A stretch of DNA of 64,000 nucleotides from Amphiscolops sp. MND2022. Taxonomy: Eukaryota. The translations under genes were made by a program, and so were the position numbers. The notes beneath the pieces are model-generated. The model was not told where the DNA came from. It made no database searches and saw only the letters and a list, made by a program, of their open reading frames with translations. The stretch spans positions 61,754,001 to 61,818,000 of the forward strand of contig OZ076409.1 in the NCBI GenBank assembly GCA_964187785.1. Reading direction: 5' to 3'. Positions 16,295-53,870 of the stretch are shown here, one piece after another; within the stretch, counting starts at the first letter, position 1, and every line of letters starts with the position of its first letter.

Positions 16295-18069
16295 TGTCGT
16301 AAGCATTTAAATTAATACCACCATCATTCTGATGGTCATGATTATGCTTGCTAGCTGAACTGTCTTTGGGGTTAATATTTTGCAGTCCTTCGGAATTTAT
16401 TTCCGGTCTCTCGGACGGAATGTCCCATCTGTTTTGTGTCATGTGTCCTGACCCGGCACTAAGGGCGGATTGGATTTGTGGGAGTACTTGGTTGCTTATT
16501 GCATCACTAATTGCCCTTTGGATCTGAGAATTGACACTACACATCATATCATCTAACTCTCTTGATAATCTAGAGTTCAATTCACTTGACAACTTGTTAA
16601 TCTCAGCACTAGAGTTGCCACCAATTGAGTTTCGACCATAATCGGCATTATTACCAGGATCAATGTCCCTTGTGACTGAGTGCCTGTTTTCACCATTATT
16701 TCCTAGTTCATCTGCAGAGGTACTACCAGGCCTTCTACCGAAATTGCTACTAACACTTCCGTCTCTTTCATTTCTATTAAAGTGGTTTTCCCCCAGCATT
16801 ATGTCAAGGTTCTCCAAGTCAGAAAGCATCTCAATTCCTCTAGACTTTCTAGCTTTCTTTTGTTTCCTTGTAGTAGGCATCAAGATTTCAAGGTTGAATA
16901 TTTTATTTGGTAATCTAGTTTTGCAATCTATAAATGCGAAACAAATCAACTGATCTGAACAATCGGTATGGAATTAATAATCACCTCAAGGAAACATTGC
17001 TATATATACCCTTACAAGTGTGATCAAATTCCATTTGTAAACGACAAATTCCTTAATGGTCATGAGGACCGACATACAGCTAGTTAGCACCTCAAAGACT
17101 TTCAGGAATTCGTCCTAGTAAGGTCAAATGTTATTCCAAACATCACGTGGTTATAGGTGTGACAGGCGGCGTGCCCAACTTACATTGACCGTGAGTTAAC
17201 ATCAAACAAATAACTAACGTACTTAACATCAATACAAATAATAAAAATGTTAACAATGCACTGTTCATTGCATTCCTTATTACAAGGTGTTGAGACAGCA
17301 CGTGCTACCACGTGGCTTGCCATGTGCCGTCTAATTCCCGTATCAAATTGAATAAATCATGATCAACAAACGCAGCAGTGACATTGGTGCAAGTTATTTT
17401 CACGAGGCCGAAACTGGCCATGTCCGGGGTTTCAGTCTTGCACTGGGAAAAGGTGGGGGGGGGCTTCATTCCAACTGCAATTATTATTATGCTCATTTCT
17501 CACATTTAAGCAGAGGGGGAGTATAATTATAGCATCAACAAGTGGACTAAAGTGAATTTGAAATAATAGGTCCGGTTATTACTATCAAAGCAACGTCAAT
17601 TAACTATTTGTACAAAATGGCCGGAACCGGCCGTTTGACCAAGTAATACAGCACAGCAAGCGTTATTTAGGAAATAGGCCTAATTAGGCCATGATAGCAA
17701 CAAAGCTAATATAGCACAACAAATACAGCGCTCTGATTGGATAAGACAATGCGCTCAAGTGACGCTTTTGGATCAGCGCTTAGCATCACTTGAACACGTT
17801 TCCTATACTGCCTTACAGTTGCTTTATATTACATTGCTCTGCTGTAATTGCATTCAACACATTTGCAACATAAAACATCCCAATTTGGACAATTCCAAAT
17901 TGTATTTAACAGACTAATATTCAGTTTGGATAAATAAACTAAAATAGTTAAAGCGAGTCTTGGCAATTGCAGTTTTGAGTTTAATAAATGGGTAATGTAC
18001 CTGGGGTAATTTCTTGTCCGTATCCCGAGGTCGTATAGTTGTTGCCATCACAGGCGGCAGCCTGCGACA
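16295..18069 (-). repeat. E1 3' LTR (1775 bp)
   Basis: Direct repeat of 30633-32406. Contains the last ~29 codons of ORF3 and a copy of the gag 5' region (ATG 16880). Confidence 0.97.
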
Positions 18070-18841
18070 CTGCGGGTGCAATGAAAAGTAAGCTGCCGGC
18101 GTTAAGACCGTTCACGTACGCTTCCCGCCTCAATTTGGTGATGTACTCAGGCTCTCCTCTGGGGGTCGATCTGTCCATATACCACTTGATTTTTTCCTCT
18201 TTGATTTCATCTACTGCTCTCCCGCAGACCATGCAACTAGTACACCGTTGTCTGCTTATATCGTCGTAGGGCCTCGAGTTCTGAATATGATATGAGGCAC
18301 GGAAGCCCCCACTAGTTGATTGGACCAAAGGGGTGTCTTTGCTTGGGCCCTTTTCGTGATCCGGGGGAGATAGGGGCGACTCCAAAACTGGCAAAATCGT
18401 ACTACAAATCTTGATTTTTGATTTCCCGGCCTTCTTCGGGGGGGCGTAGCACCTATCTATGTCGAAATACCTGTGATCCAGTTTAGGTGTCATCTCAGTA
18501 TCCGTCTTTGACGTGCTTGGTCCAGCCACCATATCATTTTCCGTTGTGTCCACCGTCATAATTCGTCCTGCGATCAGCATTGGGCTCGACGTAACCTCTT
18601 TCTCTATGCGGGCGATTAATTGTTCCGTGTCGGTAGAACAGTCCGATTCCCAGTATGAGGACTCTTCTTCATCGCTAGAGATGTAGATTACTGAATCAGT
18701 AGATTCATCTGAGTCGCAACCTTCAAGATCAAATAATTTCCTTGAGAGGTTAAATTTGCTCATTATGTATTTCTTTGCAATTTTGAGTCTAGGCAAGTCA
18801 ACTGTTTGTCGATGAAATATGAGATTGAATGAATTTATCAA
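17981..18841 (-). CDS. E1 ORF3 (env position, sense): non-env protein of unknown function with CxxC and SIM-like motifs
   Basis: Collinear with E2 51363-52370 (KIAKK, ISSDEEES, PV.ESP.SPP.HE.G, C.VCG, SQ.AACDGN.Y). No signal peptide or TM helix apparent. True start uncertain. Confidence 0.8.
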   Translation of the reverse strand: MINSFNLIFHRQTVDLPRLKIAKKYIMSKFNLSRKLFDLEGCDSDESTDSVIYISSDEEESSYWESDCSTDTEQLIARIEKEVTSSPMLIAGRIMTVDTTENDMVAGPSTSKTDTEMTPKLDHRYFDIDRCYAPPKKAGKSKIKICSTILPVLESPLSPPDHEKGPSKDTPLVQSTSGGFRASYHIQNSRPYDDISRQRCTSCMVCGRAVDEIKEEKIKWYMDRSTPRGEPEYITKLRREAYVNGLNAGSLLFIAPAVSQAAACDGNNYTTSGYGQEITPGTLPIY

Positions 18842-19826
18842 ACTTAGGGTATTAGCCGAGTTCGGTCTTTTCCCGGCAATTCGTTGTGGCGGTAGAATTC
18901 CTCAGTCGAATCTCCCAATCCGACATAAACATTCTTGAATGGAATTCCATAATTAGTTGGCTGCCTTTGATAATCCAATGTTTACCCCCCATCTACTACA
19001 CCGCTTGGAGAGCTGTGAATAACACTCGAGTCATCAAAACCAACTTCACTATTTTCAAGTGGGTAATTAACAGGTCGCTTGAAGGTAATTAACTGCGCTC
19101 GTCGTAGCTCTTTCTCAACATGGCGTTAGCCAATCAGAATTACCCATTGATAAAATGAAAAATTAATAAATAAAATGGCGAAAAATAATAATTTTGACTA
19201 TTCTAAAATGGCGATTTCTAACTAAGGGTAATAATGGCAACGGAACAGAACGGTAAAGGTAAGTAGGGTAAAAGGCCGTAATCGGCCACTCAACTAACGA
19301 AGTTATAAATAACGAGGAATTTTCTGTACATTTCGCTGGCAGACTCCGTGTACAGTTTTAAATATGTAGATAATCGAATAATATTAGTCTGGTAAATCTT
19401 CAGCCACGAACTCCAACTCTCCGATCCTATCTGATTGTTACATTTTCAATTCCATCTAACTTCCATTTGTCTCCATTCAAATTCAACACATTTGCATATT
19501 CGTTACACTTTGCTATTACGACGTCCTTTCCTCTCATCACGAGTGGCATCTCCCTCTCAGAGAATCTCGGGTTCCTTCCTTCCCCAGCCGAGATTGGCTC
19601 AATCACACAGTCCCTTCGTTGTTCCTCATTCTTCTACCTTGGACTAACGATACTGGAGAAGCATGTCTTCGAGTACAGGTTGGTCTGGTTTTCACATGTT
19701 GAACTAGCTTAGCTTGATCAGGGCTAAATTTCGTTCGTACAGCGCTTCCTGTTTCCACTAATAGGCACGTGATAACACGTTTTGTTCAAGTCTAAGATAC
19801 TTCCGGAAGATTTCTAACGCGGCAAT

Positions 19827-22800
19827 ATGGATTCTTTTCGAGGAAGCATACCGCCAAATTTTATCTCTTTTCGTTTAGAGAACCAAACAACTGAAGTTGT
19901 GAATACACCAGCTAACCCCTCTGACAGCGTTTCGACAAGCAACCCCTTGTCTGAACAGACTGAGCAAGTCCAGCATCCAGCTACGTCTCAAGAATCACTC
20001 GGCCAACGAATTGACGAAGCCACTTCCTCCCATGACGCCGATAGTGACCCAGATGTTACTACATATGCAGACAATATGGTGCGTCAGTTGGAGGGAGCGC
20101 AAACATCAAGCCTTCCGCAAGAGGGGACAGAGCAAAGAGGCCAATTCTCAGAAGTCAAACTTGATACCCCAAAGGATCCTGTCATTACGCCCATCACTGA
20201 GCCTAGAAGAGCGAGCACCCCTCTTTCTGATAATGTGGGGGAGACCCCAAGTGCTGACCTTTCTGCTCTAGAGTCAGCCTTTCGAGTAGTCGGGACACCC
20301 GGATCCCAATTAGTTGAACTTGTGGATATTGATCTTTCAGCCAACACCACTGGAGATAGCCCAACCCTGCAGCAGGACACGGAAGCAGCTTCCTCGATAG
20401 GAGACGCTCCACCCCTCCCTGGTGGGGAAATAAGAGTTCGATACCTCACAGAGCCCAGCGGAGATGAGGGGGCAACCGACCAGTCCAGCGTGATAGCTCC
20501 AGTAGCTCTATATGGAAGTCATCCTTTCTCTCACGCCTCTGGAACAGATGGAGGGGACGAAACTGGACCTGACCCTCACGTTCCAGGTACCAGTGGGCCG
20601 TCGTCCGGGCAAGGCGCAGCTCAGAAAGAACCACCACATCTCTCAGGAAGGAGTCGGGCAATTCTCAAGGAGTATTTTGATGAGTCGCCACCCTTGAGGT
20701 TCCCCGTAGGCCAATCCACCGTCACCTTCACAGAGCCGCAAGTATATCACTTGTTGAGAGTCCTTACCGATGAGACTCTAGGACGGTCCTTCTCAACCAT
20801 GGAAAAAATGGTTATTGATGCGGTTCGAGGCAGGCCAGCCATTGCTCCATCCAGGACTGCACATTTCTACTCGGGTAGACGAGCTCAGACCCCTGGACCT
20901 GCAGCCATGGGAGATTCCAGCGGAAGTGACACCGAAAGGGAAGCTACTCTGGGGGACAGAGATGTTGGATCAACTGAAACCGAAATGACAGGAGAGTCCT
21001 TCTATTATGGGGAGACTGACAGTGCAACGGAAATGGATCTCATAACCAAGTCTTTCAAGAAGGTCACACAAGGTCAAGGCGCTCCTGAACCGCAAACTCC
21101 CAGTCAAGACATATCACAGGATGTTGAGATTGATGCCCCAGAGTCCAGTAGCCAAGATGATACTTTGCTTGAGGTTAGGAACCAAGCTCTAGCCGCACCC
21201 AGCGCTGGATCCTCCGGGACTAAAAAGAAGAAAGGAAGCAAGGCCCTTTCCAGACGTGGGGTCCCTATGCGGGAAGAATTCTTTAGCAAAATTGGATGGA
21301 CGAGATCCTTCATTTCTGGCCCAGCAGATCCTCTTCATAATCCACTCATGGTCTGGTGCCACATTTGTAAAAAGAATTTTTCCATAAAGTCAAAGGGGCC
21401 ATACGAAATCCTCAGGCACCATCGGACTGCACGTCATCTGCGTCGAGACCAGCGTTGGCGATACGAGCACCTCCGCAGCGTCGATCCAGTCACAGGGAAG
21501 ACGCAACACCGAGTCCGAGGTGGGAACGGAAAACTCCTGACCAAGGTGGAGTTAGCTAGAGAGCTGCCCAAATTCAGGAATGTTGAATTAGTGGACATTG
21601 GTGAGCGCTTTCCCTTTTATGACGACTTCGTCAAAGGCTCCACCACTACCATGACCACCCCTGAAGCTCGCCTCAAAACTCAGCTCTGCCTGGTTGGAGA
21701 TTACATCAGGACCCAAGGCGATATGATGGTCTTGCGTAACCTGTGGTCCCGAATTGGATCGTTCACCAACCATCAAAGCAGTTTCAACGATTTTGATTGG
21801 GGTGAAGAAAGATTGTCGGTAAGTACTTTTCGCCTCACTCATTGACAGTCTCTCCTAAGTCTTCCTCTTTCCTATTTAGTCCAAAGGGTGTTTTCTGTCT
21901 TTAGGCGATTTTCCAACATTTCTTCATCTGTTGTCTTGATGAAATCGCGGAGCAAGTCAACTCCCAACAGTGCTTCTCCCTCGAATTTGAAACAGTAGGA
22001 GTTTTCAAACACATGTCCATCAAGTTCTGGAAGGGGTCTGAACTCTGCAGGGTGTTCGTGTGTCGTAGCTCCCGATTCACTACAGATGTTACCGGCGAAC
22101 TGGGATCTCTTTCTCGCCTCCTCTCCGCTGTGTCCACAAAGCCCGGAATAGTCGCCTGTTCGGGATGTCATCCAGATCTACCCAGAACCATTGATGAGTC
22201 TGGATATTACAACCAAGGGGTTCAGAGCTGTCCTCGATTTGAACATTTCTCCCTAGCTGGCCTCATGCATAAAACCAGCTACAGCGTCTTTGGGAAAATA
22301 GATTTTTTCTCTGTCCTGCAAGCTCTGATGGTCTCTCTGGGCGGTTCTCTCATGGAAGACTGGGTCATCAGAAGTCCTGAGCTCACCAAGGTGAGTAGTT
22401 TTCTTATAGAATCTTCATCTAGGGAACAGGAACTGGGTCAGGACGTTTAGATATTCCTATCATGCTAACGCAGGTTTAATTGGTATTTCAGGCCATAACC
22501 AGTTGCAAGCTAGAAGTACCAACCCTGCCCATTCTTTGCCGAGAGCTCATTGCCGAGTGGAAGTCTGTGGTGCGCTACCTCACTAATCACGCACCCTTGC
22601 AAGAAGGATCTGGCTCCAGAGGAAGGGTTAGATTTCCTTATCTGCACTTAAGCCCCTAAGGGTTTGGGTTGTCCTTATCCGTCAAACAAATTAAAAGTCC
22701 GTTTTCCAATCGTCAATTGGCCATATGTTTGTTCCAGGCACAAAGTTTCGAGTGGTCACTGATATGTGACGAATTCTTCACCGTTAAGCTGGAGTTCTTC

Positions 22801-24051
22801 AGCAAGATCGTCAATGACTGTGAGTGTAGTCCTGTACAATTTTCGTGAGAGAAAACTGTCTTGAGTTGGACATCAGTTTTGTTTTTAGTCGTTTCCAGCT
22901 TCACAGTGAATCTGCAATACCGCCGGGATGCTTCCTTCTATCTATGCGGAGAAGTTAGCCGCTTCCTCAGCCTGCTTTGCTCCCGAATCTATACTCCGGA
23001 CACTGCCCCAATTGCCAACGCTTGGTTTCTCCTCCTCCGGTTCCAGACCAGTGAGGGTACTTTCCTCCCCGGAGACGAATACCTGATTCGTCTCAAGATG
23101 AGCAATCGAGTGGCAACGGCAAGTAGAGTCAAGGCTGATGGAATCCATTTCGGCCAGAAAACTGAACGTCCTGCCATCCTGGCCACTGCCGATAAGGTAA
23201 AAGCTGATTTCGTCAGGGACAGCCAGCAGTACATCCAGTTTTTGATTAATGGAGTACTTGAGAAGACAGCTTTCAGTACCAACCTCGTAAAAGGATTGGC
23301 GGCCTTTGATCCTTATATAATGCTGAAGCGACCCACGGATGTAGCTTTGCGGCACTTCGAGGTACTCTACAACACCTTTGCACTTCGATCTTGGGTTGAA
23401 GAATCAAATGAGTCTCAGTGTCGGGACCAGTATATTCAGTTGCTGGACCATCTCCAGACTGCCTTCGGTTCCAGCTTTGATATTACTAGCGTGGAACCCG
23501 ATTTGATTCAATTCCTGATGGGGCTTGATTTCCTTCATGAGCGTCCACACTTGTTATATCTCTTCAAGTTGAGTTGTTTGTGTTCAACCACCGTCAGCCC
23601 AAGTTACCCAGATGTCACCTTTGGAGAGGTCACCACTGCAGGAGGGCAAAGCAGATTTACGGACCTGGTCTTGCCTTGCCAGAGTTACATGGCTAATGTT
23701 GCCGGATCGGTTTTACGGAGCAGTGAAGACTCCCACTTGGCCAAGTTCTCTGCTCTAGCTGAGTCCTTTGGACGTGCTGCCTTTTCCTCAGAGTACGATC
23801 CTTGGGTTTATACTGACACTTTCGGTCGGTCAAGAATCTATAAGTCTCTCCTGTCCACTCACCGCAAAGCCGACTCAGCTCCGAAGAGGGTTTCAACGCA
23901 GGTCAATTTGGCAGAGAGTAGTACCGTTGAAGAGCAGTCTGCAGTAAGGATCCCCAGTAGCAAGAAGCGGAAGAAGGGAAGGAGTGTTTCCCGATCATCA
24001 TCATCCTCTGTCGTTGGTAGTCCTAGTAATGATTCTTCTACTAAATCCTGA
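19827..24051 (+). CDS. E1 antisense spliced gene, 5 exons: 19827-21818, 21905-22390, 22492-22626, 22738-22819, 22889-24051 (1285 aa); zinc finger plus degenerate hAT-transposase-like region
   Basis: All introns are GT-AG (donors GTAAGT, GTGAGT, GTTAGA, GTGAGT; phases 0,0,0,1). The spliced length of 3858 nt is open. Exons 2-4 (486/135/82 nt) are identical in length to E2. Zinc finger W..CHIC..H..H. Confidence 0.88.
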
Positions 24052-24301: not shown

Positions 24302-27300
24302 CTAGTATCTGAAGTCTTCTGAGTAGTTTGGGTTAGGATTAGGCCTGAGATTATATTTCCCTCCTCTGGGGCTCAAGCTCTCTTTTCTAGCATCATTTTG
24401 CGATATTTCGGGCACGATAATATCATCCCCCTTTTTCGGAGAATTTTGTGCATCGTTTTCATTCATCAAATTCTTTTCTGGAAAATTCGCATCGTCCTTT
24501 AGTCTTTCAACCGTATTCGGCGCAGGTTTTTCTTGATCCGTTGTGGAAACGGCCGGATTCGGCCAATCAGAGTTTTCATTCTCATTTGCTTCATTAGGTT
24601 CATTAGCATTGCTGACGTCATTTCTCATTCTTTCGGTTCTATTGCGTACAGCGTCGTTGACGTCATTCGGATAATCAGTCGTGATTACATAATCACTTTC
24701 ATTCTCGTTTGCATCATTCACGTTCGTTTCTGGCGTAGTCGGCCTCTCGCTATTCGTCAGGCTAGCCGGAATTGGCTCGTTGCCTCGTGTAGCTAGTTGC
24801 TCACCAAAGTTTGTTTCCCACGTTATTACATACAAGTCGTCTTGCGGAATGATTATTTCGTCGTCCGGCTGTAGGCGCTGTTCTCGGAAATTGTCCTCAA
24901 GTGGCTGATTCGGAATAAACTTTTTGAGACGAATTCGATGCAAAATCTGCGTTTTATTTGTATTAAGCCTGCGGATGATGTAGTTCTCATTAGGTAAAAT
25001 CTTCTGGACTATGAACGGTCCAACCCAACGATAATCCCTAAATGGAATTTTTGATCCTTGATGATCCGCTTTCGGTTGTAATACAAAACAGTAATCGCCC
25101 TCTTTGAGTGGGGCGGCTTTGGCTTTCCTGTCGTAATACTCCTTATATTTGATATATGACTGCATGATGTTCTGCTTTGTCTTGTCAATAAGGAGTTTGG
25201 TTCGGTTCTGGATTTCTTCTGCGAATTCAGTAGTCGGATGGATTTGCTCATTTGGGTTCATTCCAAGTTTGTGATCCAAGATGTTATATGGGATTCTCCC
25301 ATGGAACACTCTTGTCGGTTCGCATCCGATACTGGCATGATAACTAGTGTTATGATTGCGAACTGCTAAAGGCAAATACTTATGCCATTGTCGGCGATAT
25401 TCTCCACATGCCATTTTCAAATTCGTTTTCAATGAGGCATGTGTTCGCTCTAACTTCCCGATAGTTTGCGGGTGTTTGGTCGTTGCACATTTTAGGGTAA
25501 TGCCTAAAATCTGTGTAATTTCCGCAATGATCGTGGAGGTAAAGGCAGTTCCCTTGTCCGTAATGAGCGTCGTCGGTAGGTAAGAATGTTTGGTCATAAT
25601 ATCAATGATTGCTTTAGCTACATTGATCGCTGATGCGTCCGTAAGAGGATAAGCAAACAAGTATCGAGAGAAGACATCAATTGCAGTTAAAACATTTTCG
25701 TATCCTCCACTTGGGGGAAGATTCGGCAATAAGTCAATTTGCATGGCGTCTTCGGGTCCAAGGTCCCATTCCGGCAAGTTAAGTAGTTCAGGCGTGATTG
25801 TTGCATTTGGGACTCGTTTGTCCTTTGCACATTGTTCACACCCTTGTACCCACTTTTTGACATGTTTCGCCATGTTGGGATAATAGTATCTCTGTCTGAT
25901 CTCCTGCAGCATCTTTGAAATGCCTGGGTGCTTGTGGGCTGTCCCGTGTAGGGACTGAAGCAATTCTGGCAGCAAGTGTTGCGGGAGAAGAATTTGATGG
26001 TATTTTATATTCCCAGTTTCATCAAAATATTGCCTTGTTAGTATGTCTTCCTTGATGACAATTCTTTCCAGATTATTAGCGTAATGCCTGTATCGAGCAT
26101 CTTGTTGCAGTATGTTTTCTGAGTACTCTTCATGAAGGAGCTTCGCTTTCAGTTGTTGCAGTACTGTATCTTTGGATTGCTCAATAATTATCTGGTTCGT
26201 TTTCCTCAATCGGACCTGTATTTCAGGTTGTTGTTTGACTAAGTTAGTAGATAGAGTTTGTATTGTGATAGTAGGTTCTTCAGTTACAGGGTTTTTCCTG
26301 ATTGCTTCTTTCCTCGCCCAATATTGTTCTTCAGTCTCATCGTCGTCATTTGTGTAGAAGATTTGCTCTTCCTGTGAGATTCCTGCTGATTGGACGTTTA
26401 TTTCTATTGGCAACGTTTGTACATCTTCTCGGATTTTCATTACTAATTTGTCCTTTGGGTCTGCTTCCAATCGGGACAAGTAATCCGCTGCCGTATTCTG
26501 TGCTCCTGGGATGTGCGCAATGACAAAATTGAACTGAATTACATAGTCGCACGCATTCCACAGGGCTGGGGGTACGATTTTCGTTTGGAAAAATCTTGTT
26601 ACGGCTTTGTTGTTGGTTAGGATTATGACCGGTTTCGGTGCACCCCAGAAAATATGCCCAAATTCTTTAAATGCGAAGTAGATCGCGAGAAATTCTTTTG
26701 CATAAATTGACATCTTTATCTGGGCTGGGGTGAAGGTTTTTGAACCATAAGCAACCGGTGCATATGATTTGCGGATTGACGTGAATTTCTGACTCGGGTC
26801 ATCTTCAATTAGTACTGCATATCCTGCAGCACCAAAGCTTGCATCTGTCATTAGGGCAATTTGCTTGTTCGGGATGGGTTGTTGTAGGGCCAAGTCGCAG
26901 CATTTGTCTAGAGCTCGATTAATTTCCTCAAATTGTTGAACCAGTTCTTTGGACACTAGGACTTTTTCGTCACTCTTCAGCATCTTGTAGAACGGAGCAA
27001 GGCGTTCAGACAGTCTTGGGACATAATTCCGGTAGTAGTTCAAGAAACCCAAATATCTCTGTAGAGCCTTTTTCGACTTCGGAAATTTGGTTTTTTCTAG
27101 GAAATTCTGAACATTCTGCCGTTGGGGCTTGACGCCTTGTGCGGTTATTGTCCTGCCAAGGAAATCGATTTCTGTGGCACCAAAATGGCACTTGTGCATC
27201 GTCAATTTAAGGCCTGCTTCCTGGATGCATTTGAAAGTTGCTCTCAGGTTAGCAATGAGGTGATCGGCGTCGTTGGCTGCGATGCCAATATCGTCTACAT

Positions 27301-29510
27301 ACTGTGCACATTGGTCCGCTTTTATGACTTTGTCAAGGTACTCTCTCATAAAGCTAGAGAATGCGGACAGTGCTCTATTAAGGCCTTGTGCCAGTCGTCT
27401 ATATGCAAATGTGCGGCTTGCAAAGTTAAAGGCCAACATTTCGATTGAACGTTGGTCAGCCATCGGAAGGCAATGATACGCTTGTGAACAGTCTAACTTG
27501 CAAAAGAGTTTCTTGCCTGCCATGTGTTGGGCGGCATCGACTAGGGTACTGACTGGATGATTATTGTTAATATAATCATCAGAGATTAGGTTGTTGATTT
27601 TTCTCAAGTCAACCAGAAGTCTCAGTTTCCCATTCGGCTTCTTTTGTGCGAATATTGGGCTGGCGTATTTCGAGAACGGTAAGGTAGTTATTATGCCATA
27701 TTTGTGGAGCATGGCTAATTCAACTAATATGTCCTCCTTTAAGTTTATCGGTGCAGGGAGGCTCTGACTATAGGCTGGGGAATCATCTTTGGGTGTCAGC
27801 TTCACTTTGAATTCCTCATTCATGCCTATGTCGAATCTATGTCTCGCAAAAATATCATGGAACTCCACTAGTAATCGTTCGATTTTCTCTTTTTCATCAG
27901 GTGTCAATGTGGAGTCTTTCCAGTCAAAGTTTTCCAGGAATTTTGTTCTAGATTCCTCGTCCTTTGTGGGATCAAGTGATTCTAGTTCCTGTAGGGCTAG
28001 TAATTCACGGAGTATCCTTTTTTGGATTGGTGTATGTTCTTCCGGATTCCCTGGGTTCTCTGGGGTTGGGAACCAGTAGTTTTCAGTATTTTGTGGATTT
28101 TTGTTAGTCTTGATGAGACTACTGACGTAATGGGCTGCCTGCTCTTGGTCATTTTGTAGCAAATGCCAGGTTGAAGCTGGGTCTACCGGTTTAACGTATT
28201 TCATCTGTTCTGGCGTCATGACTGAGAAACTGGCAATATGGAGTCCCTTTTTGAGCTTGTAAGGGTGGTCTGTGAAATTATTCACCGGTATCTGTATATT
28301 GCCATCATTCAAACTGACCAAGGCTGGACAGAATGTGATGTCGCCTTCTTCATGGAGAAGGTCGCTCGGTTGTAAAATCCCTGTGACCGTGTTTTCAGGG
28401 TACAATAGGGAATTGGTCCTAATTAGGACTCTGTCGTTTGGCGGAATGGTTATTTCGGTAGGGTTCAGAATTGGTTCAAGTACATTCGAGTATTTGTGAT
28501 CAGCTGTTTTGAGCTGCATCGAAAAGAATGGGAAGTTCAGTATTCCTTGCCTCATGTCCAGAACTGTATGGTTTCTCTGTAGGAACATGAGTCCTATAAT
28601 CGGTCCTGTCAAGTGTTCCATTACTATGAAAATTTCATGGAACTCTATGTCACCAACTTCAAATTTGAGCTCTATCGTACTCTTTGGAGTTTCTAGTTGC
28701 CCATTTGCGACCATTATCTGGAAATTCGGAGGTGGACCCTCCCGGATGACTGATTGCGGCGATAGGAGCCTGATTTTCCGGAGGTCCATTTCAGGGATTG
28801 CACTGGATAAAGCACCAGTGTCAATAAGTCCATCTATGGTCAGTTCCCCAAAGTCCATAGGGAAATACAGCATGCGTTTTTTGCATTTCAAGTTTATGCT
28901 GGTGGACAGAGGAATACAGTCTGGTTCTCCTTCTCTAGTAATGAGGATGTTCTGAAATTGACTTTCATCAAGTAGTGACTGTGGTATTGTTTCTTCTGGT
29001 TTGTCTGAGGTTTCGGTCCCCAAGGGGTTTGGGAACACTGGGTGGCTTGTCCCATCATTCATCTGCCATGTTTCAATCAATGCTCTGGTTTTCTTGTTAT
29101 GGGTGATTGGTGGATTGTCGTGGACTGATCTGTTATAGAGTTCTATGTCATCGATAACGTATTGGAATTGCAACAAGTCCTGGTTGTAAAGTTCGGTATC
29201 CCAATAGGGATCTCGTCCATAGTCAGGATCTATGTAGGTAGGGTTGTAGTCGTCTACCAAGGGAATGGGCCTGAATCGGCTAGTGAAAGCAGATGTGTAA
29301 TCAGGGTCCCATACAGGAATTGGTTTTTGGAGCAAATGGGTATTATTATAGGTGATAATGGTAGCTTTTTCCATCTGTTGCTGCCAGACAACAGAGGGGT
29401 AACCCTTCAATTGTTGTTGGTATTCATGGAAAGTTTTCGTCGGAGGATCCGACCTGATGTGTTGACGGACGGATATTAGTTGGTTGTATTGGAGTCGTGG
29501 CGAAGTTAGT
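24302..29510 (-). CDS. pol: E1 pol polyprotein (PR, dUTPase-like, RT, RNase H, integrase), reached by -1 frameshift from gag
   Basis: LIDTGA protease, YVDD RT, TDAS..E RNase H, H-H-C-C and D-D-E integrase, GPF motif. The frame is open from the slippery site at ~29510. Confidence 0.95.
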
Positions 29511-31218
29511 TTTTTGACTCATCTTTGTTTGATGAGGATTGGGTATTGGAGGACGTTGGTTTGTTGTGTGGTTTGGGTGCCTTGGAGTCATTGTCGGTGT
29601 CTGAAGAATCTTCAGGTCTGGTTCGTTTGGGTTTCAAGTGAGCACCTGCTCCCTGCCAACATCGCTCCTCTGGATGATTTTTCTTGCCACAAGTCCCGCA
29701 TTTAGGGTACGTTTTCTTCTCCGTCGATTTGCCTTGTTGGGCATCTTTTTCTTTCTTCTTTTTGAGTTTTTCACAGTCTTTGACCATGTGGCCCTTTTCC
29801 TTGCAGTAGTTGCAAGTTATATTTGACATTTGATTAGTGGACAGAGGGGTTTTATTCTTGGAGGATGAGGAGGTCATTGTTGCCATGGGTAGGTCATCTG
29901 ACTCCTCAAGGGCGTTAAGCTCTAGTTCCCTCTCCAAATGAGCAACTATTTCGTCGTAAGAGCCATTTTCTAATCTGGCCATGTTGACTGATCGCTTGAG
30001 TTTCGGAGGCAGTTTTGCGTACAATAGGCTGTCAATCATTTTTTGTGCATGATCGCCGAATGCTTTTTCTGCCCCTTGATTCAATTCTTCAAGGAAATCC
30101 GGTAATTTCATCGTGTTGGGATCAAAGACCAAGCGGTGCCATTTGTGCTTAGCAGTCGCTTGTGACTCGGGTTTGACGTATTTTCGTCGGAAAATGACCA
30201 AAACGTCTTCAAGAGTCTGTCGGTTGGTCGAGTTGATATTTCTGAACGTCTGAAGAGCATTCTTCCTCAAAAGCGAGTGGAAATGGTTAATCTTCATTTG
30301 TTCAGTCATTTCTGGCTGCATCTTGATCATAGTATGAAACAGATCTTCGAACAGTTCAAATTTCTCACTTTTGCCGTCAAAGGTCATGGTATTTGAGTTG
30401 ACCGGGCGTATGGTGAGTTGTTGGGCTGTTGGTCGGTTCTGCATGCTTGTCAAGACATCTGCCAGTCTAGTAATTGGATCAGATTCGGCAACCGGAGCGG
30501 GTCTTTCTTGTGCTGGGATCGTCGTGTTAAGGTTGATGTCTTCATAGGACTGGTCAAGATGATTCCGCGATAGAATCCGTCCTGTGAGAAACTCAGGAAC
30601 TTGATTCGGAGATTCGTTGTCTCCTGTCACCATGTCGTAAGCATTTAAATTAATACCACCATCATTCTGATGGTCATGATTATGCTTGCTAGCTGAACTG
30701 TCTTTGGGGTTAATATTTTGCAGTCCTTCGGAATTTATTTCCGGTCTCTCGGACGGAATGTCCCATCTGTTTTGTGTCATGTGTCCTGACCCGGCACTAA
30801 GGGCGGATTGGATTTGTGGGAGTACTTGGTTGCTTATTGCATCACTAATTGCCCTTTGGATCTGAGAATTGACACTACACATCATATCATCTAACTCTCT
30901 TGATAATCTAGAGTTCAATTCACTTGACAACTTGTTAATCTCAGCACTAGAGTTGCCACCAATTGAGTTTCGACCATAATCGGCATTATTACCAGGATCA
31001 ATGTCCCTTGTGACTGAGTGCCTGTTTTCACCATTATTTCCTAGTTCATCTGCAGAGGTACTACCAGGCCTTCTACCGAAATTGCTACTAACACTTCCGT
31101 CTCTTTCATTTCTATTAAAGTGGTTTTCCCCCAGCATTATGTCAAGGTTCTCCAAGTCAGAAAGCATCTCAATTCCTCTAGACTTTCTAGCTTTCTTTTG
31201 TTTCCTTGTAGTAGGCAT
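29506..31218 (-). CDS. gag: E1 gag (570 aa from MPTTRK), first 195 codons inside the 5' LTR
   Basis: Capsid-like FDGKSEKFELFEDLF region. Two CCHC knuckles (CNYCKEKGHMVKDC, CGTCGKKNHPEERC). Confidence 0.92.
   Translation of the reverse strand: MPTTRKQKKARKSRGIEMLSDLENLDIMLGENHFNRNERDGSVSSNFGRRPGSTSADELGNNGENRHSVTRDIDPGNNADYGRNSIGGNSSAEINKLSSELNSRLSRELDDMMCSVNSQIQRAISDAISNQVLPQIQSALSAGSGHMTQNRWDIPSERPEINSEGLQNINPKDSSASKHNHDHQNDGGINLNAYDMVTGDNESPNQVPEFLTGRILSRNHLDQSYEDINLNTTIPAQERPAPVAESDPITRLADVLTSMQNRPTAQQLTIRPVNSNTMTFDGKSEKFELFEDLFHTMIKMQPEMTEQMKINHFHSLLRKNALQTFRNINSTNRQTLEDVLVIFRRKYVKPESQATAKHKWHRLVFDPNTMKLPDFLEELNQGAEKAFGDHAQKMIDSLLYAKLPPKLKRSVNMARLENGSYDEIVAHLERELELNALEESDDLPMATMTSSSSKNKTPLSTNQMSNITCNYCKEKGHMVKDCEKLKKKKEKDAQQGKSTEKKTYPKCGTCGKKNHPEERCWQGAGAHLKPKRTRPEDSSDTDNDSKAPKPHNKPTSSNTQSSSNKDESKN
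29509..29515 (-). promoter_or_regulatory. -1 ribosomal frameshift slippery heptamer A AAA AAC (E1)
   Basis: TCA AAA AAC TAA ends gag, and the -1 frame runs open into pol. Same arrangement in E2. Confidence 0.85.
30621..30632 (-). promoter_or_regulatory. E1 primer-binding site TGGTGACAGGAG
   Basis: Abuts the LTR end. The 12-mer is identical in E2 and one mismatch from the tRNA-Leu-type PBS TGGTGTCAGGAG. Confidence 0.85.
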
Positions 31219-32406
31219 CAAGATTTCAAGGTTGAATATTTTATTTGGTAATCTAGTTTTGCAATCTATAAATGCGAAACAAATCAACTGATCTGAACAA
31301 TCGGTATGGAATTAATAATCACCTCAAGGAAACATTGCTATATATACCCTTACAAGTGTGATCAAATTCCATTTGTAAACGACAAATTCCTTAATGGTCA
31401 TGAGGACCGACATACAGCTAGTTAGCACCTCAAAGACTTTCAGGAATTCGTCCTAGTAAGGTCAAATGTTATTCCAAACATCACGTGGTTATAGGTGTGA
31501 CAGGCGGCGTGCCCAACTTACATTGACCGTGAGTCAACATCAAACAAATAACTAACGTACTTAACATCAATACAAATAATAAAAATGTTAACAATGCACT
31601 GTTCATTGCATTCCTTATTACAAGGTGTTGAGACAGCACGTGCTACCACGTGGCTTGCCATGTGCCGTCTAATTCCCGTATCAAATTGAATAAATCATGA
31701 TCAACAAACGCAGCAGTGACATTGGTGCAAGTTATTTTCACGAGGCCGAAACTGGCCATGTCCGGGGTTTCAGTCTTGCACTGGGAAAAGGTGGGGGGGG
31801 CTTCATTCCAACTGCAATTATTATTATGCTCATTTCTCACATTTAAGCAGAGGGGGAGTATAATTATAGCATCAACAAGTGGACTAAAGTGAATTTGAAA
31901 TAATAGGTCCGGTTATTACTATCAAAGCAACGTCAATTAACTATTTGTACAAAATGGCCGGAACCGGCCGTTTGACCAAGTAATACAGCACAGCAAGCGT
32001 TATTTAGGAAATAGGCCTAATTAGGCCATGATAGCAACAAAGCTAATATAGCACAACAAATACAGCGCTCTGATTGGATAAGACAATGCGCTCAAGTGAC
32101 GCTTTTGGATCAGCGCTTAGCATCACTTGAACACGTTTCCTATACTGCCTTACAGTTGCTTTATATTACATTGCTCTGCTGTAATTGCATTCAACACATT
32201 TGCAACATAAAACATCCCAATTTGGACAATTCCAAATTGTATTTAACAGACTAATATTCAGTTTGGATAAATAAACTAAAATAGTTAAAGCGAGTCTTGG
32301 CAATTGCAGTTTTGAGTTTAATAAATGGGTAATGTACCTGGGGTAATTTCTTGTCCGTATCCCGAGGTCGTATAGTTGTTGCCATCACAGGCGGCAGCCT
32401 GCGACA
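30633..32406 (-). repeat. E1 5' LTR (1774 bp)
   Basis: Direct repeat of 16295-18069, followed on the sense strand by the PBS. Confidence 0.97.
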
Positions 32407-38061: not shown

Positions 38062-39643
38062 TGTCGCAGTCTGCCGCCTGCGATGGCAACAGCTACCAGA
38101 TTGTGCCTAACGACAAGAGCGACATGCCGTTGCCTGCTGGGGTGCTCCCCCTATAGGTGAAATAGACTACAGGTCCGCACAAAACTATCCAGTTAAATTT
38201 GATGTCAGTATAAAGTATTTTAGTTAGCATTTATATTATTTTACGGACCATCGGTCCACCCGTCTAGAGTAGACAGTCTGACAAACTAATATCCTAGAAC
38301 TGATTATTTATATCAATTAGATGAGTTTTCATTTGTATTTACGTGTATAACTATGTAAACCAAATTGCCAGTGAGTCTGATTAATAATATCAAGGTGTAA
38401 AGAAGCTAAAAGGTAGTAAGGAAACGCGTTCGAATTACACTACCAACAGTATAATCGACGCGTGGTCCTTTCAGTTATTAACCAATCAGCTTGCAGTAAA
38501 TATTTCATTCGCTTGTGCTATACTGTGCTTACTCTTCTAGTTGCCATTAATCGATCGGACCACCAGTCCGTCACATGTAAAATACATGTATTGCTCATGC
38601 TGAAAATCACCTATGCAAACAATGGCTTAACCAAAGTAATCCGCATGTATTTAGTCTTGAAAGGCGTGCCGCCATTTCCCCCCCCCCCACTGAGTAATTT
38701 TACTCTGGTTCTAAGAAACGTTGCTAAATATAAATATGACGTAACAGTGACGTTATCCTTTGAGGGTTTTGCCCAGATTTGTTGCTATTTTTGGATACGT
38801 GACGCTGATAAAATTTGCTTGTCATGCTTCTCTTACTATATATTGGGGAACCGTGAGTCTCCCAGGGACAATCTCTCACGCTACTCAACTCAATTCAATT
38901 ACACTCTGTTCAGTGACAATTTCTGATGCGAATTTGGACTTAAAGTCCGCAACTACCTTATTTGACCTGATTCAATATATCCAGATTTGTTTTGTTGCAC
39001 TCATTCAGTTGAAGTAACTTAGTACGAACAATATAGTGTTATTTGAAAAGAACCTTTCAAATGCCTTCGACAAGAAAGCAGAAAGCAAGGGAAAAGCGAT
39101 CAAGGCAATCAGACGTGATGTCTGATCTAGAAAATATGAATGTCATGTTGGGTAACTACCAAGAAAATCAATCAGACATTGATCTAAATGAAAATGTAGA
39201 AATGGACTTAAGGTCCAATGGTACAAGGACCGACATCGTCAGGAATTGTGAGGATTTCAGAACGTTATTGACTTCTGAAGGCAGGAATAGGTACGAAATA
39301 CCTACAGAAACCAATAGACTCATCACTGAAGAGATAACTAGTCAAATGAATAGGAAAATTGATGAGCTGAAAAGGAACTTAGACACCCAAATTACAGAGT
39401 CTATTAATTCTGCAATACATGATTCAATCCTTCCTTCTATCCAAAATTCGTTATCAGGACAAAATAGTGGGTTAGGTACGAATGTGGACTCAAGGTCTAG
39501 TAGACTAAGCAGGAACGCCGAAGGTAAAAAACACCAAAGTGCTTGGGGAGATACCCATTGTAGAATACATTCAAATTCAAACAATCATCCCCATTCTAGA
39601 GACGACTCATTAAGTTCATTAGACTGTCGGGATGATCATGACA
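38062..39643 (+). repeat. E2 5' LTR (1582 bp)
   Basis: Direct repeat of 52276-53865. Contains the gag ATG at 39061. Confidence 0.97.
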
Positions 39644-40767
39644 TGGTGACAGGAGCCAACCCTACCCCTCGTATGGTTCCTGAGTTTCTTACTGGACGTC
39701 CCACACAATCCCGAGATAACCCGCAAAGCCAAGACCCTATAGATCCTCAGTCTCCGACCACGTCACCTCAAGACCAGGAGACCATTGGTCACAATTCGGC
39801 TATAGACCCTCTCACACGCCTTGCTGATGTTCTAACAGGCATGACCAATAAGCAAACCCCACAAACACTCATGGTACGACCCGTCAGTACAACTACACTG
39901 ACCTTTGACGGGAAATCTGAAAAATTCGAACTTTTTGAAGACCTTTTTCATACAATGATAAAAATGCAACCAGAAATGACTGAAACAATGAAAATTAATC
40001 ACTTTCATTCCCTCCTACGTAAAAATGCACTACAAACCTTTCGTAACATCAACTCTGCCAATAGGCAGACCCTAGAAGACGTACTCGCGGTCTTCCGACG
40101 AAAGTACGTCAAGCCGGAATCCCAAGCCACTGCCAAACATAAATGGCAAAAATTAGTGTTCGACCCCAACACTATGAAACTTCCAGATTTTCTCGAAAAA
40201 CTCAACCAGGGAGCAGAAAAAGCGTTTGGGGAAAATGCCCAAGCAATGATAGACAGCCTTTTATACGCTAAACTGCCCCCTAAACTCAAGAGATCGGTAA
40301 ATATGGCACGGCTTGAGAACGCCTCATATGAAGAGATCGTTACCCATTTGGAACGCGAACTTGAACTAAACGGACTTGAGGGAGGTGACGACATTACTGT
40401 ACCTACAATGTCTACTGCCCCTACAGCAACACGACCTGGAACTGGCCTCCTTTCTTCTGGTATTGATCCCAATATCACCTGCAATTACTGCAAAAAACCT
40501 GGCCACGTCAAAGACGAATGCCGAAAACTTAAACGAAAGGAGGAACAACGACGCAATGACGGGCAGGATACTAAAAAAGAATATCCCAAATGCCCAACTT
40601 GCGACAAAACAAACCACCCGGCGGAACGATGTTGGAAAGGCGCTGGAGCCCACCTCAAGCCCAAAAACCTCAAGATCGAAGACGCAAAACCAGACAACAC
40701 GTCTCCCAGCCAATCCGAAACCAATAACAAACAAACTACTTCTATCTTAAAAAACCCAAAAAACTAG
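39061..40767 (+). CDS. gag: E2 gag (568 aa from MPSTRK), first 194 codons inside the LTR
   Basis: Capsid region nearly identical to E1. Two CCHC knuckles. Confidence 0.92.
   Translation: MPSTRKQKAREKRSRQSDVMSDLENMNVMLGNYQENQSDIDLNENVEMDLRSNGTRTDIVRNCEDFRTLLTSEGRNRYEIPTETNRLITEEITSQMNRKIDELKRNLDTQITESINSAIHDSILPSIQNSLSGQNSGLGTNVDSRSSRLSRNAEGKKHQSAWGDTHCRIHSNSNNHPHSRDDSLSSLDCRDDHDMVTGANPTPRMVPEFLTGRPTQSRDNPQSQDPIDPQSPTTSPQDQETIGHNSAIDPLTRLADVLTGMTNKQTPQTLMVRPVSTTTLTFDGKSEKFELFEDLFHTMIKMQPEMTETMKINHFHSLLRKNALQTFRNINSANRQTLEDVLAVFRRKYVKPESQATAKHKWQKLVFDPNTMKLPDFLEKLNQGAEKAFGENAQAMIDSLLYAKLPPKLKRSVNMARLENASYEEIVTHLERELELNGLEGGDDITVPTMSTAPTATRPGTGLLSSGIDPNITCNYCKKPGHVKDECRKLKRKEEQRRNDGQDTKKEYPKCPTCDKTNHPAERCWKGAGAHLKPKNLKIEDAKPDNTSPSQSETNNKQTTSILKNPKN
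39644..39655 (+). promoter_or_regulatory. E2 primer-binding site TGGTGACAGGAG
   Basis: Abuts the LTR end (…GACA|TGGTGACAGGAG). Confidence 0.85.
40758..40764 (+). promoter_or_regulatory. -1 frameshift slippery heptamer A AAA AAC (E2)
   Basis: CCA AAA AAC TAG ends gag. The -1 frame is open for 45 codons up to the first pol ATG at 40899. Confidence 0.85.
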
Positions 40768-43700
40768 ATTCGCCACGACTCCAATTTGATACAAAATTAC
40801 GCGTCCGACAATATATCATTTCTGATCCTTCTACCGTATTCTACACTGAATATTATTCACCACTCAAGGGCATCTCATCAGCTGACTGGCAGCAGCAAAT
40901 GAGAAACATCCCTAACCAATTCTGCACTGTGGACCTCAGGTCCAACGGACTTGACTCGACTTCATGCTCCACCTGCCCTCTTCCAGAAATACCAGACTAT
41001 AACCCCTATTATATAGATCCGGACTACGGCCTTGACCCCTACTGGGACATCCATCTCTACAATCAACATCATTTATCCTTCTATACCGACTTCACCAAAC
41101 ATCCAACAAATATCGAACCTGATTGTCCAGCAACCGATAGTGCCCTTAACAGCGTTCTAAAGAACGCATCAGTCGATGCCTGGCAAACTAAACCCAATCC
41201 CTGCACTCTACCGGCACAACACACCCAGGGACACCAATTTGACAGCTTGGGACCACAGGTCTCTTTGACTACAGCAGTCGAAGCACGATTTACGAACACA
41301 CTGGTCACCAGACAAGGTGAACCAGACTACGTACCACTGACAACCAATCTCGGACTCAAATACAAAAGACGAATGCTCTATTTTCCAATGGATTTCGGCG
41401 AACTTACATTAGATGGCCTTGTAGACACGGGGGCACTATCTAGCGCAATCCCTGAAGCTGACCTACGTAAAATCCGATTATTAGCCCCTGAGTCAATTGT
41501 CAAAGAGGGCCCTGCACCCAACTTCCAAATAATGGTAGCCAATGGGCAATTAGAAACTCCAAAGAGCACAGTCGAATTAAAATTTGAAGTCGGTGACATC
41601 GAATTTCACGAAACCTTTAATGTCATGGAAAAATTGACAAGCCCATTGATTGGCCTTTCGTTTTTACAGCGAAACAATACCATACTGGACATGCGCCAGG
41701 GAGTCTTAAGTTTCCCATTTTTCTCCATGCAATTAAAAACAGCGAATCACAAGTACACTAATGTCATGGAACCTATCTGTACTCAGGAGGATATTACAAT
41801 TCCCCCTAATGATAGACAAATGGTAACATTGGCATCCCAAATGTACGACGATACCACTGTAACCGGCATCCTCCTACCGAGCAACGCACTCATTGAGGAC
41901 GGCGATGTTGCCTTTTGCGCGGCATTGGTCACACTGACCTCTGGTCAAGTAGAAATTCCGCTCAATAATTTCACTGACCACCCTTATACTCTCAAGAGAG
42001 GCTCGCACATTGCCAATTTCTCTGTCATGACTCCAGGGCAGATGAAATACGTTAAACCCATTGAGCCAGTGACCACATGGCACCTCTTACAGGATGATCC
42101 TGAAAATGCGGCTTTCTATGTCAGCAGCTTGATTAAATCTTCCAAACCAGAAGATTTTAAAGAAAGTTATTGGTTCCCTACTCCAGAGGACCCTGGGGAT
42201 CCACAACAACACACACCCATTCAAAAACGGATACTGAAGGAAATACTCAATCTTCAGGAACTTGAAAAACTGAATCCTCAGGAAGACCCTGAGTCCAGAC
42301 GACAATTCTTGACCAACTTTGATTGGACTGATTCAACACTGCAACCACATGAAATTGCACGCATTGAGGACTTACTTGTCGAATTCCACGATATATTTGC
42401 GAGACACCGCTTTGACATTGGCATGAACGAGGAATTCACGGTTAAGCTTACGCCGAAAGACGATTCCCCGGCCTATAGCCAAAGCTTACCGACACCTATC
42501 AACCTCAAGGAAGACATCCTCGTTGAATTAGCCTTACTACAGCGCTATGGGATTATCACAACACTCCCATTCTCCAAATATGCCAGTCCCATTTTTGCCC
42601 AAAAGAAACCAAATGGTAAATTGAGACTATTAGTCGACCTTCGGAAAATAAACAACCTTATTTCAGATGACTATATCAACAATAATCATCCTGTCAGTAC
42701 GCTAAGTGATGCAGCTCAACACATGGCAGGCAAAAAACTCTTTTGCAAGCTAGATTGCTCACAAGCATATCATTGCCTGCCAATGGCGGACCAACGGTCC
42801 ATAGAGATGTTGGCGTTCAATTTCGCTAGCAGAACCTTCGCCTACCGCCGATTAGCTCAAGGTCCCAGCCGTGCCTTATCAGCCTTTTCTAGCTTTATGC
42901 GAGAATACCTCGACAAGGTTATCAAGGCCGATCAATGCGCACAATACGTCGATGACATTGGCATTGCCGCCAATGATGCAGAACAACTCATCAAAAACTT
43001 CCGGGCCACTTTCCAATGCATTAGACATGCAGGCCTGAAGCTCACTATGCACAAGTGCCATTTCGGAGCAACGGAAATCGACTTCCTGGGCCGAACGATC
43101 ACTCCGGACGGCGTACGTCCACAACGACCACGAGTCCAAAATTTTCTGGAAAAAAAAAACAAAATTCCCGAAATCAAGGAGGCATTACAGCGCTACTTGG
43201 GATTCTTAAACTATTATCGAAACTACATTCCTAGACTATCCGAAAAACTAACACCATTTTTCAAATTGCTCACTAAAGACGAGAAGGTCATGGTAACCCC
43301 GGACCTATTGGACAAATTTTCCGAAATTAACAAAGCCCTTGATCGATGTTGTGAACTAGCACTTAAACAACCTTTGCCCAACAAACAAATCGCCCTGATG
43401 ACTGATGCGAGCTTTACGGCGGCCGGATATGCAGTCCTCATCGAGGACGATCCGCTTGAGAAATATACATCAACAAGGAAAGCATACGCACCGGTGGCCT
43501 ACGGCTCCAAGACCTTCAGTCGCGCACAACTCAAAATGTCCATATACGCCAAAGAGTTCCTAGCAATTTTCTTCGCCTTCAAAGAATTCGGACACATTTT
43601 TTGGGGAACACCAAAACCGGTCATTATATTAACAGACAACAAGTCGGTCACACGATTTTTTCAAACAAAAATCATTCCACCATCCTTATGGAACGCTTGT

Positions 43701-50244: not shown

Positions 50245-51362
50245 CTAATCGCGTTTGAAAGTCTTTCGAAAGCAAGTTCATTATCTGTTCATGCCTATAG
50301 CAGAATATTTTACGATGGAGGAAGTGAAAACTTCGTCAATGGGAAGCCCTGATCAAGCTCAAAATTGACAAAAATTTAAAGAACCAACCTGATATTTGTC
50401 TAGATTGACAAATAGAATTCAACGCCAAATCTGTTCTGCTGGAACTGGAAATTGTCTTTAATGAATTGGTGTGCCTGCGAATAACCGGGTTGGAGCTACT
50501 GTTCCAAAAATAGTTTTCGAGCAAATTGAAGCTTAAGCCAATGTAGGTCGGACAGACTCACGGTCCAGAAGGATGTAATTCTGCGTGCGATGCTGCTACA
50601 ATGACGAAAAGCCTGGCTGTACGAGGTTAAGGGCAGCCCAGAGATAATAAATTTATCTAAAGACGCTCGGAATAACCAATTCAAATAATTGACTGGGGTG
50701 ACGAATTCAAATACTAGAATGTGCAATTGATGCTGTCAATCTGGTGTACAATGATTTACGTTAAACGGACCAGTAGTCAATATACACTATGCTTACTTAT
50801 CACTACCACTCTCGACTGTCAAGACGGTTAATTACGTAATCATTATACTTACACTTCTACTTGAAATTTAAGGACGTCGTGGCTACATGTACTTTAGCTT
50901 ACCAACTTATCTAATATTATTTGAAGTATGCCTTTAATGTATTACGAAGTGTTACTGATTCTGCCAGAGAAGTACACTTTCTACTTTGATCAGATCATAA
51001 TTCTCATCCCCTTGGTACAATCCTTTACCTTCAGTACATTATCCCAACCATTATCTTTAGATTAGTCTCATCACTCTCCATTACTTCATTCATTTATTCA
51101 AAATTTTCATTCAGAAAATTCATTCATTTATCAGTAGAATTTGATTGGTTAGCAGGTCATCACTAGTTGTGGCGGAACGGTAGTCTTTGATGGTTATTGT
51201 TGATTGAAGGTTAGTGTTAATAAACACCTTCACCAATAATTAGCGTCACCTAGCTTATTAGGGCAAGCACTTGAAGAGGTCTCAAGGGCTATCTGAACGA
51301 CCGATTACCAACATGATAAGGGTAATTAAAAAGACGAAAGCACAAAACTTCTGAAAATAGAA

Positions 51363-53865: not shown

Positions 53866-53870
53866 CGAAT

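Follow-up and report, generated by a model that had tools for sequence, protein, structure and literature searches.

A predicted four-intron gene of likely hAT transposase origin lies antisense to gag-pol in Ty3/gypsy retrotransposons of Amphiscolops

The 64,000-nucleotide (nt) stretch of the Amphiscolops sp. MND2022 genome analysed here (contig OZ076409.1, positions 61,754,001 to 61,818,000; hereafter the window, in whose own numbering positions are given) contains two full-length Ty3/gypsy long terminal repeat (LTR) retrotransposons, E1 and E2, each carrying a large gene with four introns on the strand opposite gag-pol. This antisense gene is very probably a functional gene of the element that is predicted to be spliced, and its product probably derives from a hAT transposase that looks to have lost its catalytic residues.

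A predicted five-exon gene opposite gag-pol

Joined by coordinates (Table 1), the five exons that an earlier note, made from the letters alone, had proposed for each element read without internal stop into proteins of exactly the lengths it gave, 1285 amino acids (aa) in E1 and 1248 aa in E2. The internal exons (486, 135 and 82 nt) and the intron phases (0,0,0,1) are the same in both elements, as had also been claimed; the introns, all GT..AG and each with stops in all three frames, measure 86/101/111/69 nt in E1 and 182/69/67/210 nt in E2. The two predicted proteins are 34% identical (427/1245) and align without a gap at any of the four junctions, which is why these splice sites were chosen among the frame-keeping alternatives that exist (E1 acceptor 22907; E2 donor 47485). 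Also present are the acidic, S/T/P-rich N-terminus with a single conserved helical block of about 60 aa, the basic patch and the CxxC..H..H zinc finger described in the same note. At its 3' end the antisense gene meets or runs into the end of pol, and AATAAA lies 150-194 nt beyond the antisense stop in five of 12 copies. We note that a TTGTA..TGTACA..TAAACT-like motif, a possible signal of the 3' untranslated region (UTR), follows the stop in most copies (window 24052-24100 and 45969-45920; loci L031-L038 and L040).

When exon 5, exon 2 and a divergent homologue served as queries against the 1.07-Gb assembly, the first-look candidates numbered 6,868, 7,462, 6,486 and 10,997, figures that are not copy counts, and the best 115-150 candidates were scored in each search. 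Forty-four loci could be tested for their surroundings (30 near-identical, 10 hand-picked for diversity and four from further subfamilies), all drawn from high-scoring matches, so that rare free-standing copies could escape; in 44 of 44 the end of pol lies tail-to-tail with the antisense gene. The four intron positions recur, with varying intron lengths, in 16 diverse copies with exon 5 identities as low as 44%; in these, 62 of 64 introns read GT..AG at the extrapolated positions and the remaining two are explained by an anchor 1 nt off (L034) and by a short deletion in exon 4 (L035). A seventeenth, partial locus (L055), which has lost the intron-1 acceptor, was considered as an intronless copy and rejected as a deletion across that acceptor. 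No intronless whole-gene copy was found among the scored matches, as judged by open-frame lengths. The introns of the antisense gene are preserved because the element packages RNA of the opposite strand, which shows the spliceosome no GT-AG. Nine other family copies are at least 99.87% identical over 3.4-3.9 kb; the carrier family is very abundant and still recent. Some matches lie 14.3-14.7 kb apart (G000:C5:67769965/67784310; C7:62498498/62513171/62527844; C6:27809425/27823767), a spacing close to one element minus one LTR and therefore probably reflecting tandem elements with a common LTR.

The earlier suggestion of selection for coding and splicing held up. Within the E1 and E2 groups, the proportion of nonsynonymous differences (pN) per exon is 0.03-0.23 against 0.38-1.1 for synonymous differences (pS), and the ratio of the corrected rates (dN/dS) is 0.035-0.064, not near 1, in the four of 11 pairs with correctable dS, the other seven being saturated. 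Pooled over four disjoint pairs, the micro-exons 3 and 4 too are under strong purifying selection, with a Fisher p of about 1e-33 or smaller. In most pairs, pN is at or close to its minimum in the portion of exon 1 that encodes the finger. Chance open reading frames (ORFs) were considered as an explanation and rejected.

Evidence on the first junction comes from homologues outside the window. Queried with the finger region, a set of 1.84 billion representatives yielded 415 relatives, the ten that were looked up all being ENA proteins. Thirteen reach exon 2: five cross junction 1 without an extra residue (P0020, P0143, P0147, P0079 and P0104), five with 24-27 extra aa that are best read as intron 1 translated in frame, and three irregularly. 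The five intron-1-less ORFs, which include the two most divergent of the 13 relatives (28% identity), fix junction 1 independently and indicate that intron 1 is absent in some lineages; judging from these sequences, it appears to have been gained or lost within the lineage. Three of them (P0020, P0143 and P0147) extend into intron-2-like sequence and then stop, and so look genomic. A scan of JGI metagenomes gave 259 pattern matches with none confirmed, and no longer annotated full-length homologue was present among 2,025 candidates.

The possibility that the gene is merely an ordinary nested hAT element, or a host gene that was transduced and is carried along by a few copies, has some initial appeal given that true hATs are numerous in the host genome. 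It is largely refuted and retains a negligible probability. Exact inverted matches between the two flanks of the gene reach at most 8 nt in E1 and 10 nt in E2, in agreement with the absence of terminal inverted repeats (TIRs) noted earlier; as this leaves no ends, no separate search for an 8-bp target site duplication (TSD) was made. The position of the gene is the same in all 44 loci. Identities in exon 5 and in the integrase correlate (Mantel r 0.85, 1 of 5000 permutations), and the trees of the two share the deep E1/E2 split, their shallow branches being unresolved. The antisense gene co-diverges with the integrase and has travelled with pol to the point of synonymous saturation. Both a nested active hAT and a rare transduction were accordingly rejected. 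The host hATs seen in passing (ORFs at L041-L045, 597-697 aa) have intact D, D, RW and E motifs.

The antisense gene is accompanied by a head-to-head partner, ORF4, which had escaped the earlier note, as had the gag start inside the 5' LTR and the intron-1-less homologues. The ORF4 product is acidic with a CxxCG motif and is 30% identical between E1 and E2 (E 5e-26). A genome search for ORF4 gave 8,636 candidates; 147 were scored, and the majority of these lack a stop. ORF4 begins about 0.9-1.1 kb from the antisense ATG, is oriented away from the antisense gene, and has a frame that spans the boundary between the internal region and the 3' LTR. Between the two lies a conserved unit, about 105 nt 5' of the antisense ATG, that is kept in six of seven copies at a length of 37-45 nt; its 15-nt 3' part has 557 matches in the genome versus one for a control. 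This unit may be a very short fifth intron, located in the 5'-UTR, or another RNA or promoter signal.

Ancestry of the predicted protein

The case for a hAT origin is structural, the fold having been compared as two separate pieces, exons 1 and 2 together and exon 5. An AlphaFold model of P0143, a natural exon 1+2 homologue (predicted local distance difference test, pLDDT, 70.5; predicted template modeling score, pTM, 0.40), contains a confident finger and helices, followed by three strands, a helix and a fourth strand. Foldseek placed Hermes chains at ranks 1-9 for this model (best 8edg, E 1.9e-4, 363 columns), ahead of retroviral integrases, an outcome that agrees with the fold expected in the earlier note. 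VIA-align likewise confirmed the RNase H-like domain and aligned it with Hermes 143-263 (Z 5.2, root-mean-square deviation, rmsd, 6.1, 110 residues), the longest alignment among the matches listed. The exon 5 model (pLDDT 68.8) is all helical and was aligned by VIA-align with Hermes 363-608 at rank 3 of 48,161 (Z 5.4, rmsd 5.8, 179 residues), the other rows aligning at most 123 residues. The finger has the spacing CxxC-16/17-H-4/5-H in 68 of the 82 proteins that possess the CxxC, and 16/4 is found in two host hATs. That two blind searches fell on consecutive parts of Hermes in gene order, together with the BED-type spacing of the finger, makes descent from a hAT transposase likely.

Several results weigh against this assignment. 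P0143 is a 28%-identical homologue from outside the window and not the E1 or E2 protein itself, and other RNase H-like folds outscore Hermes on the strand domain (Z up to 7.1). Foldseek with exon 5 returned nothing at E 0.001 from the PDB and viral structures. The structural scores are modest (template modeling score about 0.2), VIA-align Z values of 5-7 being in the range that the tool assigns to common arrangements. Sequence searches against Pfam and the PDB, with exons and with alignments, gave nothing informative, and no similarity emerged from hmmsearch of both profiles against eight host hAT ORFs or from hhalign against an alignment of seven host hATs. Pfam searches detected neither PF05699 nor DUF4371, nor zf-BED, the only hit to the finger being a weak C2H2 match in four of 47 members. 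The ESM Atlas provided leads only: a PF05699 cluster at 0.92, with recognition below threshold, and DUF659 clusters at 0.76. The resemblance to ZNF862 and hAT transposases asserted in the earlier note thus stands, by structure, for the hAT origin and is not confirmed for the ZNF862 subtype, the genome search for DUF4371 having come back empty (0 of 7 candidates) with its control also silent.

The loss of catalytic residues, which had likewise been proposed, was recovered in a by-eye motif register against host hATs: the first Asp position is occupied by E in 19 of 23 rows, the second by S in 14 of 17, and that of the catalytic Glu by Y, L or F in at least 84 of 89. Neither CxxH nor RW is recognizable in the antisense protein, whereas TRW is present in seven of seven host hATs. 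With these substitutions and motif losses the protein looks catalytically dead. The conserved fold and the acidic residue at the first position would be compatible with a protein that still acts as a nuclease or recombinase through a rebuilt active site; the S and the Y/L/F at the other two positions and the missing CxxH and RW render this very improbable.

Compared with hAT transposases such as Hermes (PDB 8edg, 4d1q, 2bw3), the predicted protein has the same order of BED-type finger, helical domain, RNase H-like strands, helical insertion and C-terminal helix. It differs in having an additional N-terminus of about 480 aa and no intact DDE triad, TIRs or detectable sequence similarity. ZBED, SLEEPER and ZNF862 are hAT derivatives domesticated by hosts; here the domesticator would be a retrotransposon.

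Possible function and known parallels

The gap of about 0.9-1.1 kb shared with ORF4 would be a natural site for a divergent promoter, and transcription of the antisense gene may start from such an internal promoter, the transcript then being spliced. The product could act in the nucleus, where the BED-type finger and hAT scaffold would bind DNA and the acidic, disordered N-terminus would serve as effector. By binding the element's own LTR or internal promoter, the predicted protein might increase gag-pol RNA, through trans-activation or by blocking host silencing. We favor this account of a spliced, hAT-derived gene encoding a nuclear DNA-binding activator or anti-silencing factor tentatively, its likelihood falling somewhat short of even. 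In its favor, activators are typically built from an acidic disordered arm joined to a DNA-binding body, and selection in every lineage is accounted for if the factor increases copy number. Against it, the E1 and E2 LTRs resemble each other only over their first ~32 nt, yet the fingers are about 50% identical, such that a short common target, or one in the host, fits as well as self-activation.

Those ~32 nt bear on another proposal, in which the dead transposase would assist integration, either by gripping the LTR terminus of the new complementary DNA (cDNA) or by tethering the integration complex to chromatin. That they are the only LTR stretch common to the two elements is suggestive of a role at cDNA ends, as is the conservation of the whole hAT body and not just of the finger. 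No polypurine tract was found adjoining the 3' LTR (window 18070-18370 and 51975-52275 inspected), the nearest run of at least eight purines ending 82 nt (E1) and 58 nt (E2) upstream, which hints at unusual cDNA handling. The conserved end of ORF4 is encoded in the same ~32 nt and can explain their conservation, however, and the long acidic N-terminus would better suit a transcription factor. We regard an accessory role at integration as rather unlikely.

Antisense genes of retroviruses suggest a role of the opposite sign. HBZ of human T-cell leukaemia virus (HTLV) type 1, an antisense nuclear protein, lowers sense transcription according to PMC8622228. By analogy, the protein encoded here, its antisense RNA, or both may repress the LTR and limit the activity of the element, an arrangement to which the antisense 3' end abutting or overlapping the end of pol would lend itself. 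Such self-restraint appears unlikely for a family that is hugely amplified and recent (LTRs 99.9% identical; the nine copies at or above 99.87%), and strong selection in each lineage would be easier to explain by a factor that raises copy number. PMC8622228 presents HBZ and HTLV-2 APH-2 as antisense nuclear regulatory proteins of LTR elements and reports spliced antisense transcripts for HTLV-2/3/4 and the simian viruses (STLVs); PMC7264820 has the deltaretrovirus antisense genes driven from the 3' LTR. The likeness to E1 and E2 lies in the antisense position and, as far as the E1/E2 product may be nuclear, in the regulatory role. Unlike the gene described here, HBZ (a bZIP protein) and APH-2 (183 aa) are small, not derived from a transposase and borne by retroviruses.

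Export or protection of unspliced genomic RNA, in the manner of Rev or of a CERV-like factor, has a precedent in C. elegans Cer1 (PMC10309623) and could make use of the basic patches present at both ends of the folded region. A BED finger combined with a hAT fold is a DNA-binding architecture and no RNA-binding feature was seen, which makes an RNA-level accessory improbable. As a functional model for the activator or anti-silencing factor that we favor, we take VANC, an accessory factor encoded by a transposable element and serving its own family. It differs in fold, origin and its DNA transposon carrier, and no sequence or structure link to it was found. The VANC proteins are anti-silencing proteins of plant MuDR transposons in the account given in part of PMC13547354.

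The closest parallels in position are plant gypsy elements, where ORFs on the antisense strand have been described between pol and the 3' LTR (passages of PMC7264820, PMC11963269 and PMC6317226). In the corresponding text of the first two, the origin and function of these ORFs are stated to be unknown, their origin being untraced and they themselves unlike known transposable elements. Maize Grande gene23, the Retand ORFs with TRP28 (PF04195) and RIRE2 are, like the present gene, antisense, located between pol and the 3' LTR and kept in most copies, and gene23 has its own upstream, internal promoter and a nuclear product (excerpt of PMC7264820). In contrast to Grande and Retand, the E1 and E2 gene has four conserved introns, a length of about 1,250 aa, a hAT-like fold and a sense partner in ORF4. 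Pfam searches found no PF04195 match in the E1 and E2 antisense proteins, and the word intron is absent from the main text of the Retand paper. The portions covered of PMC5408684, PMC8220671, PMC13547354, PMC13524379, PMC6431247 and PMC9911081 mention no spliced hAT-derived antisense gene. No hAT-derived or multi-intron antisense gene of an LTR element emerged from full-text searches of the literature outside subscription journals, and an entry in Repbase, Dfam or GyDB is possible.

What stands out relative to the plant and deltaretrovirus cases is the traceable transposase origin, the four conserved introns and the very high copy number. For decades the antisense accessory ORFs found in LTR retrotransposons have posed a puzzle, and tracing the origin of one to a hAT transposase leads to a concrete question, that of the DNA target of the BED finger. 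If correct, the assignment offers a clear example of the domestication of one transposon class by another, and of a retroelement that has retained spliceosomal introns and gained or lost one. More speculatively, and with appreciable doubt on our part, the whole gypsy lineage, which is dominant here and present in related assemblies, might be a four-gene element with a divergent cassette of spliced dead-hAT gene and ORF4, in which a Class I element domesticated a Class II transposase as a DNA-binding factor that it requires, introns were gained or lost inside a retrotransposon, and replication possibly proceeds without a standard polypurine tract and with the involvement of extra proteins. The gene, present in thousands of copies, may be part of the reason for the expansion of the family, and it may also cause thousands of false host genes or nested DNA transposons to be annotated.

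Carrier elements and other features of the window

Self-comparison of the window delimits E1 on the minus strand (32406-16295) and E2 on the plus strand (38062-53865). Their LTR pairs are 99.89% identical in E1 (one mismatch and one gap over ~1.77 kb) and 99.06% identical in E2 (1.58 kb), with ends reading TG..CA at all but the start of the E2 3' LTR. Both elements are flanked by 5-bp TSDs, GTAAC in E1 (32407-32411 and 16290-16294) and CGAAT in E2 (38057-38061 and 53866-53870). A 12-nt primer-binding site (PBS) adjoining the 5' LTR has its match at the 3' end of tRNA genes in the host, one of which is tRNA-Leu(CAG) according to ARAGORN. Together with the opposite-strand gag-pol, the LTRs, TSDs and PBS establish the LTR element context that had been noted for the antisense gene. 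The tRNA-Leu-type 3'-end pattern, which is the primer tRNA type of E1 and E2, has 1,392 matches genome-wide with a strong skew to one strand. A tandem array with such ends occupies G000:C8:35587099-35633585, and a dispersed copy (L054) was seen on C2.

Pol has the order protease, reverse transcriptase (RT), RNase H and integrase, and its closest solved relative in a PDB search is Ty3 Gag-Pol (E 6e-47); the RT relatives listed, at least 120, are all ENA proteins. The 13-nt overlap of pol and gag in E1 suggests a frameshift. In both elements gag reads from within the 5' LTR through the PBS (31218-30633; 39061-39643), and because its start lies ~195 codons inside the LTR, each 3' or solo LTR holds a truncated gag ORF (16263-16880 and 53274-53939). 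Between protease and RT, both elements show a weak dUTPase-like stretch (pol residues ~350-433), with PF00692 E values of 0.0018 (E2) and 0.094 (E1), both below the cut-off; precomputed matches exist also for P0290 and P0311.

Table 1. Coordinates of the features of E1 and E2 in the window
Feature	Position	Strand	Remarks
E1 5' LTR	30633..32406	-	1774 nt, TG..CA; contains first ~195 gag codons
E1 PBS	30621..30632	-	complements tRNA-Leu 3' end; inside gag frame
E1 gag	29506..31218	-	ATG at 31218 within LTR; DUF1759, zinc knuckle
E1 pol	24302..29518	-	protease, weak dUTPase-like stretch, RT, RNase H, integrase; gypsy order
E1 antisense exon 1	19827-21818	+	conserved N-terminal ~20 aa, acidic S/T/P-rich region, helical block, basic patch, BED-type CxxC-H-H finger, helical domain
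E1 antisense exon 2	21905-22390	+	486 nt; RNase H-like strands; by eye E at first Asp position, S at second
E1 antisense exon 3	22492-22626	+	135 nt
E1 antisense exon 4	22738-22819	+	82 nt
E1 antisense exon 5	22889-24051	+	all-helical; weak Hermes 363-608 match; by eye Y/L/F at catalytic Glu; basic low-complexity tail
E1 conserved upstream unit	19679..19725	+	43 nt (candidate 5'-UTR intron 19679-19721); CAG/GTTGGT..TTGATCAG/GG
E1 ORF4	17981..18901	-	sense ORF, acidic, CxxCG; head-to-head with antisense gene; ends inside 3' LTR
E1 3' LTR	16295..18069	-	from self-comparison
E2 5' LTR	38062..39643	+	gag ATG at 39061 lies within LTR
E2 PBS	39644-39655	+	directly after 5' LTR
E2 gag and pol	39061..45845	+	gag up to 40767; pol 40728-45845
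E2 antisense gene	50244-48346, 48163-47678, 47608-47474, 47406-47325, 47114-45970	-	1248 aa
E2 conserved upstream unit	50345..50388	-	40 nt
E2 ORF4	51330..52370	+	reads into 3' LTR
E2 3' LTR	52276..53865	+	starts TC, not TG

Elsewhere in the window, a third LTR-like element (54237-59297) has repeats of 709-723 nt that are 97.6% identical (TGTAACGTC..GACGTTACA) and no long ORF, and is likely non-autonomous. Clustered repeats of 130-345 nt with inverted copies, tandem repeats of ~187 nt and a 90-nt near-perfect palindrome were observed in the regions 6000-14000, 33000-35500 and 61537-61626. Two probable host exons are present, one on the minus strand (4412-4846) encoding part of an N-terminal methyltransferase (PF05891, E 2e-45) and one on the plus strand (61912-62259) encoding the start of an FAD-binding oxidoreductase.

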